Positions 63,797 through 64,000 of a stretch of DNA of 64,000 nt are shown here, in pieces. The position numbers and the translations under genes were made by a program. Each line of letters begins with the position of its first letter. The first letter of the stretch is position 1. The notes beneath the pieces were generated by a model. The model was not told where the DNA came from. It made no database searches and worked only from the letters and a program-made list of their open reading frames with translations. Source of the DNA: Escherichia coli (lineage in GTDB: Bacteria > Pseudomonadota > Gammaproteobacteria > Enterobacterales > Enterobacteriaceae); assembly GCF_003334315.1 (NCBI RefSeq), contig NZ_QOWR01000012.1, one strand, 5' to 3'.

Positions 63797-64000
63797 GGTG
63801 ATGCTGCCAACTTACTGATTTAGTGTATGATGGTGTTTTTGAGGTGCTCCAGTGGCTTCTGTTTCTATCAGCTGTCCCTCCTGTTCAGCTACTGACGGGG
63901 TGGTGCGTAACGGCAAAAGCACCGCCGGACATCAGCGCTATCTCTGCTCTCACTGCCGTAAAACATGGCAACTGCAGTTCACTTACACCGCTTCTCAACC
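63797..64000 (+). mobile_element. IS1 insertion sequence, left end and 5' part (continues beyond window)
   Basis: GGTGATGCTGCCAACTTACTGATTTAGTGTATGATGGTGTTTTTGAGGTGCTCCAGTGGCTTCTG... matches the IS1 terminal inverted repeat and insA leader as I recall them. Confidence 0.9.
63853..64000 (+). CDS. insA: IS1 InsA (transposition regulator), 5' partial
   Basis: GTG start; translation [49 protein letters not shown] with zinc-finger CxxC...CxxC. Confidence 0.88.

Follow-up and report, generated by a model that had tools for sequence, protein, structure and literature searches.

IS1 interrupts the diguanylate cyclase gene dgcI at the start of its GGDEF domain in an Escherichia coli strain

The stretch of Escherichia coli DNA analysed here (64,000 nucleotides of contig NZ_QOWR01000012.1, assembly GCF_003334315.1; hereafter the window) ends inside a copy of the insertion sequence IS1 that interrupts dgcI (yliF), and the dgcI reading frame left in place is, on the evidence of its sequence, a pseudogene and not a cyclase. 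It is very probable that an IS1A-type copy transposed into dgcI as a simple insertion and that the catalytic domain was lost with it. The feature is an ordinary, recent and lineage-specific insertional pseudogene, of a kind that RefSeq has already annotated at many other sites of dgcI.

Results

Over positions 1-63796, from bioD to dgcI, the window is collinear with E. coli BL12 (NZ_CP079780.1) at an identity of 99.95-99.98%, and no second insertion sequence was seen in this span by comparison with BL12. K-12 MG1655 is 99.75% identical to the last 10.3 kb before the junction, its match ending exactly at dgcI nucleotide (nt) 936, and the gene order gsiABCD-pdeI-dgcI is the same as in K-12. The first gene of the pdeI-dgcI pair, pdeI (yliE; 60505-62853, plus strand), ends 7 nt ahead of the dgcI start and encodes a full-length protein of 782 residues with a CHASE9 sensor and an EAL domain, as assigned by Pfam on the identical gene of a Logan contig; residues ~377-774 are matched by EAL-family NCBIfam models, and A292S is the single substitution relative to K-12, so that pdeI is indeed intact, as the first-pass annotation had it. 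Elsewhere in the window, a molybdenum cofactor (Moco) riboswitch lies upstream of moaA (4337-4481), in agreement with the annotation of BL12. Four intergenic repeat copies of 120-155 nt, 81-86% alike, are found at 2990-3127, 19690-19845, 33025-33155 (minus strand) and 45017-45171, three of the four with matches to Rfam ES036 (CssrF), and there are two matches to the REP-type naRNA4, at 25011-25081 (minus strand) and 51816-51893 (plus strand).

The dgcI reading frame opens at 62861, and homology to the intact gene stops at 63796, which corresponds to nt 936 and codon 312, IS1 following from 63797. As (63797-62861)/3 equals 312, the first base of IS1 sits on a codon boundary, and the position of the junction is unambiguous, nt 937 of dgcI being T and nt 1 of IS1 being G. 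The 23-bp left terminal inverted repeat (IRL), GGTGATGCTGCCAACTTACTGAT, occupies 63797-63819 (plus strand) and is the same as that of complete 768-bp copies at loci L001 and L013; the 5' part of insA runs from its GTG start at IS1 nt 56 to the end of the window (63852-64000, plus strand), in the direction of dgcI, with 49 codons visible before the window cuts the gene and a translation ending in ...TASQ. From 63797 to 64000, 204 of 204 bases agree with complete IS1 copies, with zero mismatches in 13 copies, among them complete 768-bp elements that RefSeq labels 'IS1-like element IS1A family transposase'. The InsA fragment matches the NF050000 model of the IS1/IS1595 zinc-binding domain (E = 5.5e-11; 42.8 bits for a cut-off of 28); a left inverted repeat of ~23 bp and an insA with a zinc ribbon starting ~55 nt from the left end assign the element to the IS1 family. 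These observations bear out the earlier reading of an IS1 left end and insA start from 63797, placed after codon 312 of a 442-residue DgcI. That reading had also called the element fused in frame: the codon boundary is real, but no DgcI-InsA fusion is formed, since insA lies in a frame different from that of dgcI, whose own frame crosses eight IS1 codons (GDAANLLI) and closes on a TAG at 63821-63823 (IS1-encoded tail with stop, 63797-63823, plus strand).

The part of dgcI that precedes IS1 (codons 1-312; 62861-63796, plus strand) encodes a first transmembrane segment, the GAPES2 sensor, a second transmembrane segment, a linker and the first 18 residues of GGDEF, as deduced from identity to BL12 and from Pfam. 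Its 936 nucleotides are 100% identical to the intact BL12 allele, and the stump differs from the DgcI of K-12 MG1655 at two residues (S37G and G131E). With the IS1-encoded tail, the product is 320 amino acids long against 442 for the intact protein. In intact DgcI, Pfam places GAPES2 at 26-229 and GGDEF at 295-437, the GGDEF motif standing at 369-373, and hydropathy peaks at residues ~4-31 and 223-252. In the truncated product, the Pfam search returned the periplasmic GAPES2 domain at 26-229 (E = 4.5e-142) as sole match, the GGDEF domain being absent; the window's frame thus keeps a TM-GAPES2-TM architecture next to pdeI and lacks the GG[D/E]EF active-site motif of the diguanylate cyclases. 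The first-pass annotation had spoken of the C-terminal part of GGDEF being removed, which is right as to the loss but falls short of its extent, for nearly the whole domain is gone and 18 residues of it are left.

There is good reason to hold that an intact DgcI is active. In strain CFT073 the protein has a complete A-site without an I-site consensus (PMC3484386); expression of the Shigella flexneri orthologue led to more c-di-GMP than that of three other cyclases, an effect abolished by a GG-to-AA change (PMC11327459). DgcI is therefore a genuine cyclase that needs its GGDEF domain, so that loss of residues 313-442 must abolish catalysis, and DgcI activity must be taken as lost in the window's strain.

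Since IS1 is multicopy and short-read assemblers break or misjoin contigs at such repeats, a junction at a contig end could in principle be a chimera produced by a collapsed or misjoined repeat. We regard this as practically negligible, because the same junction occurs in independent assemblies made by different pipelines and because the join falls at base 1 of IS1, as a real transposition requires. The Logan assembly of SRR1122540 (L003) is identical to window 52861-63825 (10965/10965), junction included, and its contig ends 29 nt into IS1; the NCBI draft GCA_002190225.1 (L050), found by a look-up of the window's PdeI allele, is identical to window 55505-63926 (8422/8422), again with the junction, and ends 130 nt into IS1. 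By exact protein look-up, three Logan contigs of 10-20 kb carry the 320-residue product, SRR1122540 being the one shown. The SRR1122540 contig begins within the naRNA4 match at 51816-51893, so that at each end the contig was broken off by a repeat during assembly.

The junction is rare. It occurs in 0 of the 5426 complete RefSeq E. coli genomes, and IS1 is likewise not found at nt 936/937 in K-12 MG1655, whose dgcI is intact and does not end naturally at codon 312; the suggestion that the site is absent from the K-12 reference and specific to a strain is thus upheld, the identical cases being the one NCBI draft and the Logan contigs. Only 2 mismatches in 8.3 kb separate the near relative at locus L047 from the window, and its dgcI, like that of BL12, is intact and encodes 442 residues. 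Intact genes in the closest relatives, together with a stump that shows no further decay, make the event look recent, and we infer that the insertion is so. Look-ups of the open reading frames expected downstream (120 and 95 amino acids) returned many other disrupted alleles, the window's strain not among them, and the closest relative's YliI allele has 25,233 listed blocks, too many to trace the right-hand contig. A 320-residue stump of the same length at locus L013 (GCA_949766815.1) proved to be a different allele, in which IS1 lies 22 bp further downstream at target GGAAAAAG (nt 951-958), the equal length being coincidental.

What lies beyond the window, where the insB' frame, the programmed -1 frameshift site and the right inverted repeat of IS1 would fall together with the second target copy and the remainder of dgcI, can be predicted from the behaviour of IS1 in other genomes. 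We mapped to the base 25 other complete IS1 copies, of which 24 lie within dgcI (nt 6 to 1222) and one downstream. Twenty-four of the 25 are 768 bp long and flanked by a target duplication, of 8 bp in 8 cases and of 9 bp in 16, the remaining copy, in E. coli GF60, bounding a deletion; they occur in both orientations and comprise several IS1 sequence variants, 91.7-100% identical. As nearly all of these copies in or beside dgcI are simple insertions, we favour the same origin for the window's copy. In a phylogroup-A-like E. coli, an IS1 of the IS1A type would have entered the chromosomal dgcI at the boundary of nt 936 and 937, insA pointing along dgcI. The 9 bases before the junction (63788-63796, plus strand; dgcI nt 928-936) would be the left copy of a duplicated target, GACGAAGAT, a prediction that rests on the 8-9 bp duplications of the 24 copies and on an IS1 adjoining nt 928 at locus L015. 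On the right, a complete 768-bp element would be followed by the second GACGAAGAT and by the remaining 393 nt of dgcI: IS1 would run to ~nt 768, ending ...AAGTTGGAGTCATTACC, and then give way to (G)ACGAAGAT TTAAAAGCGCTGCC, or, in an alternative rendering, would end ...CAATAAGTTGGAGTCATTACC before GACGAAGAT (or ACGAAGAT) and then TTAAAAGCGCTGCCGGAAAAAG..., which is dgcI nt 937-1329. The gene so interrupted would yield only the 320-residue membrane protein, in which TM1, the GAPES2 sensor, TM2 and the linker are joined to 8 residues from IS1, and, with its catalytic GGDEF gone, no c-di-GMP would come from DgcI. In the relatives, rimO is the next gene downstream and is convergent with dgcI, so that a polar effect on it is not expected. 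A pair consisting of a RelE/ParE toxin and an HTH antitoxin lies between dgcI and rimO at seven loci (L006, L009, L011, L016, L024, L026 and L028) and is absent from K-12, BL12 and the window's close relatives.

The left end of IS1 could alternatively mark the breakpoint of a rearrangement, namely an IS1-mediated adjacent deletion that took away the remainder of dgcI, with rimO and further sequence perhaps lost as well, an inversion between two IS1 copies, or a composite element with inverted IS1 ends inserted at nt 928-936. E. coli GF60 (L028) provides a precedent, for there a single IS1 without duplication joins pdeI to dgcI nt 803, the 3' part of pdeI through dgcI nt 802 being missing; matches H127-H134, whose coverage of the query begins at nt 166-373, likewise suggest that the 5' part of dgcI has been deleted. 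GF60 looks like the outcome of a deletion between two copies such as those of E. coli THO-015 (L043), which has one IS1 at nt 322-330 of dgcI and another at 803-811. As for a composite, its right side would look like the beginning of a contig of GCA_029361095.1 (L015), where an inverted IRL adjoins dgcI nt 928. That IS1 has the window's own 9-bp target (dgcI nt 928-936) but the opposite orientation and a flanking haplotype like that of K-12: downstream it shows 0 mismatches to K-12 in 3739 positions, and the window's closest relative differs from it at 10 of 4066. Given these haplotypes, we judged it unlikely that a single composite has the window as one side and L015 as the other; the L015 insertion is most likely independent of the window's. 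Moreover, complete genomes differ in the orientation of the single IS1 copy that they carry at three other target sites of dgcI. With these points and the predominance of simple insertions among the mapped copies, a rearrangement of any of these forms seems unlikely, and a simple insertion at nt 936/937 remains our preferred account.

To place the insertion in the species, joined dgcI-IS1 queries in either orientation were run against the complete genomes, and IS1 was found inside or within ~1.5 kb of dgcI in 60 + 36 of the 5426, with ~58 expected from a uniform spread of ~64,000 chromosomal IS1 places. Inside dgcI proper, the count was at least 21 complete genomes against ~17 expected from the same uniform spread. 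As the counts are so near to the uniform expectation, there is no enrichment at the level of the gene, and we have discarded such an enrichment as a sign of selection. Taken together, IS1 in dgcI or pdeI concerns ~1-2% of complete E. coli genomes. In most of the 96 genomes (60 + 36) the IS1 near dgcI lies in pdeI, and RefSeq renders that gene as split CHASE9 and phosphodiesterase fragments; identical spans are shared among these pdeI cases, of 2680 nt in H67, H71-H74, H77 and H78 and of 3323 nt in H92-H99.

Within the gene, the distribution is uneven. Four exact targets were used repeatedly in unrelated genomes (nt 322-330, 803-811, 917-924 and 928-936, the last being window 63788-63796), by copies that differ in orientation or IS1 variant (loci L029, L038, L043, L028, L001, L011, L033 and L015). 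Among 25 events, 6 coincident target pairs were counted against 0.23 expected if insertion were uniform, in a sampling biased toward this part of dgcI. IS1 is well established as an element with target-site preferences.

Insertion is one of several ways in which dgcI is broken. Many public assemblies carry a dgcI with a nonsense codon (at 307, 311 or 318), with a single-base indel (+1 at nt 925, +1 or -1 in an A5 run at nt 953, -1 at nt 970 or at nt 1026) or with an 11-bp deletion at nt 970; these alleles (L006, L008, L009, L010, L014, L016, L018-L020 and L023-L025) come from look-ups biased to the start of GGDEF, and sequencing errors may account for some of them. At 90% identity, 1305 DgcI sequences fall into the cluster of the stump; all 15 listed ones are shorter than 442 residues, some of these being sequencing errors or contig-end fragments.

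Discussion

dgcI is a poorly expressed and dispensable gene, disrupted in many ways across E. coli. That IS1 re-uses a few targets in it is what one would expect when an element with preferred sites meets such a gene. One may nevertheless wonder whether nt 928-936 is one of several preferred targets, each struck independently and in either orientation in strains that are unrelated, and whether catalysis is lost again and again, the stump and pdeI being kept, because of selection in some niches and not by neutral decay; this reading would take in not only the IS1 alleles but also the frameshift and nonsense alleles clustered at the start of GGDEF. We find it improbable.

DgcI was undetectable in K-12 under standard conditions, with very low expression of its gene, as one of four such GGDEF/EAL proteins (PMC5635695). 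In CFT073, deletion of yliF led to more adherence to bladder cells (PMC3484386). Overexpression of the partner PdeI raised c-di-GMP ~11-fold in one study (PMC11651652), whereas PdeI acted as a phosphodiesterase in a phage N4 screen cited in PMC8669469. The first-pass annotation had expected the loss of the cyclase beside an intact pdeI to shift the local c-di-GMP balance toward degradation. With DgcI undetectable in K-12 and the net effect of PdeI contested, this expectation, for which the literature gives mixed support, is unsupported as a conclusion, and we would keep it as a plausible guess. It seems reasonable to propose that the insertion is most likely neutral, or nearly so.

A functionally meaningful disruption can be imagined in two ways: the TM-GAPES2-TM stump may retain a non-catalytic role, for instance through contacts with PdeI, or a GGDEF fragment may be translated from an internal start. 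The first finds an echo in S. flexneri, where a catalytically dead GG-to-AA DgcI still cut invasion and plaque size (PMC11327459). The second recalls the cyclase pseudogenes of that species, which in spite of nonsense mutations before GGDEF still increased c-di-GMP, apparently through translation from internal start sites (PMC11327459), and an open reading frame of 120 amino acids (TTG at codon 323) is called in the remainder of other disrupted dgcI alleles. However, such a fragment would be missing 18-28 residues or more from the start of the domain, as well as the membrane and sensor part that normally supports dimerisation; an in-frame TAA lies 18 nt ahead of the right end of IS1, and no start codon is found before codon 323. 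As DgcI is, besides, barely expressed in K-12 (PMC5635695), we hold a meaningful disruption of either sort to be quite improbable and return to the view that the insertion is neutral or nearly so.

For annotation, dgcI of the window's strain should be recorded as a pseudogene, and for work on c-di-GMP, biofilm or adhesion the strain should be treated as a natural catalytic null of dgcI with pdeI intact. The wider context is also of mild use for studies of the turnover of GGDEF/EAL genes or of target choice by IS1.

In comparison with known systems, the visible part of the element is that of the IS1A type found in K-12 and many Enterobacteriaceae: the IRL, the position of the insA start (nt 56) and the 49 InsA residues encoded before the window ends are the same, no sequence difference separates the two, and the window's insertion differs in its site, which is not among the IS1 sites of K-12. 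The nearest counterparts are the other IS1 insertions in dgcI of complete genomes, which share the gene, the event and the consequence, RefSeq recording two partial GGDEF-protein pseudogenes that flank IS1, and which differ from the window's in their site, the latter being 936/937. In strain 4588 (NZ_CP123237.1), for example, IS1 stands in the same orientation as in the window but 12 bp upstream, at target GAAAATCC (nt 917-924). A more distant likeness is offered by the degenerate cyclase pseudogenes dgcE, dgcQ and dgcN of S. flexneri, members, like the window's dgcI, of the E. coli/Shigella GGDEF set, whose reading frame is interrupted upstream of GGDEF or where it begins. There the lesions are nonsense mutations, downstream of which the entire GGDEF domain can be translated, and c-di-GMP is still made (PMC11327459), whereas in the window's dgcI the break falls inside GGDEF and 768 bp of IS1 would stand between the two parts.
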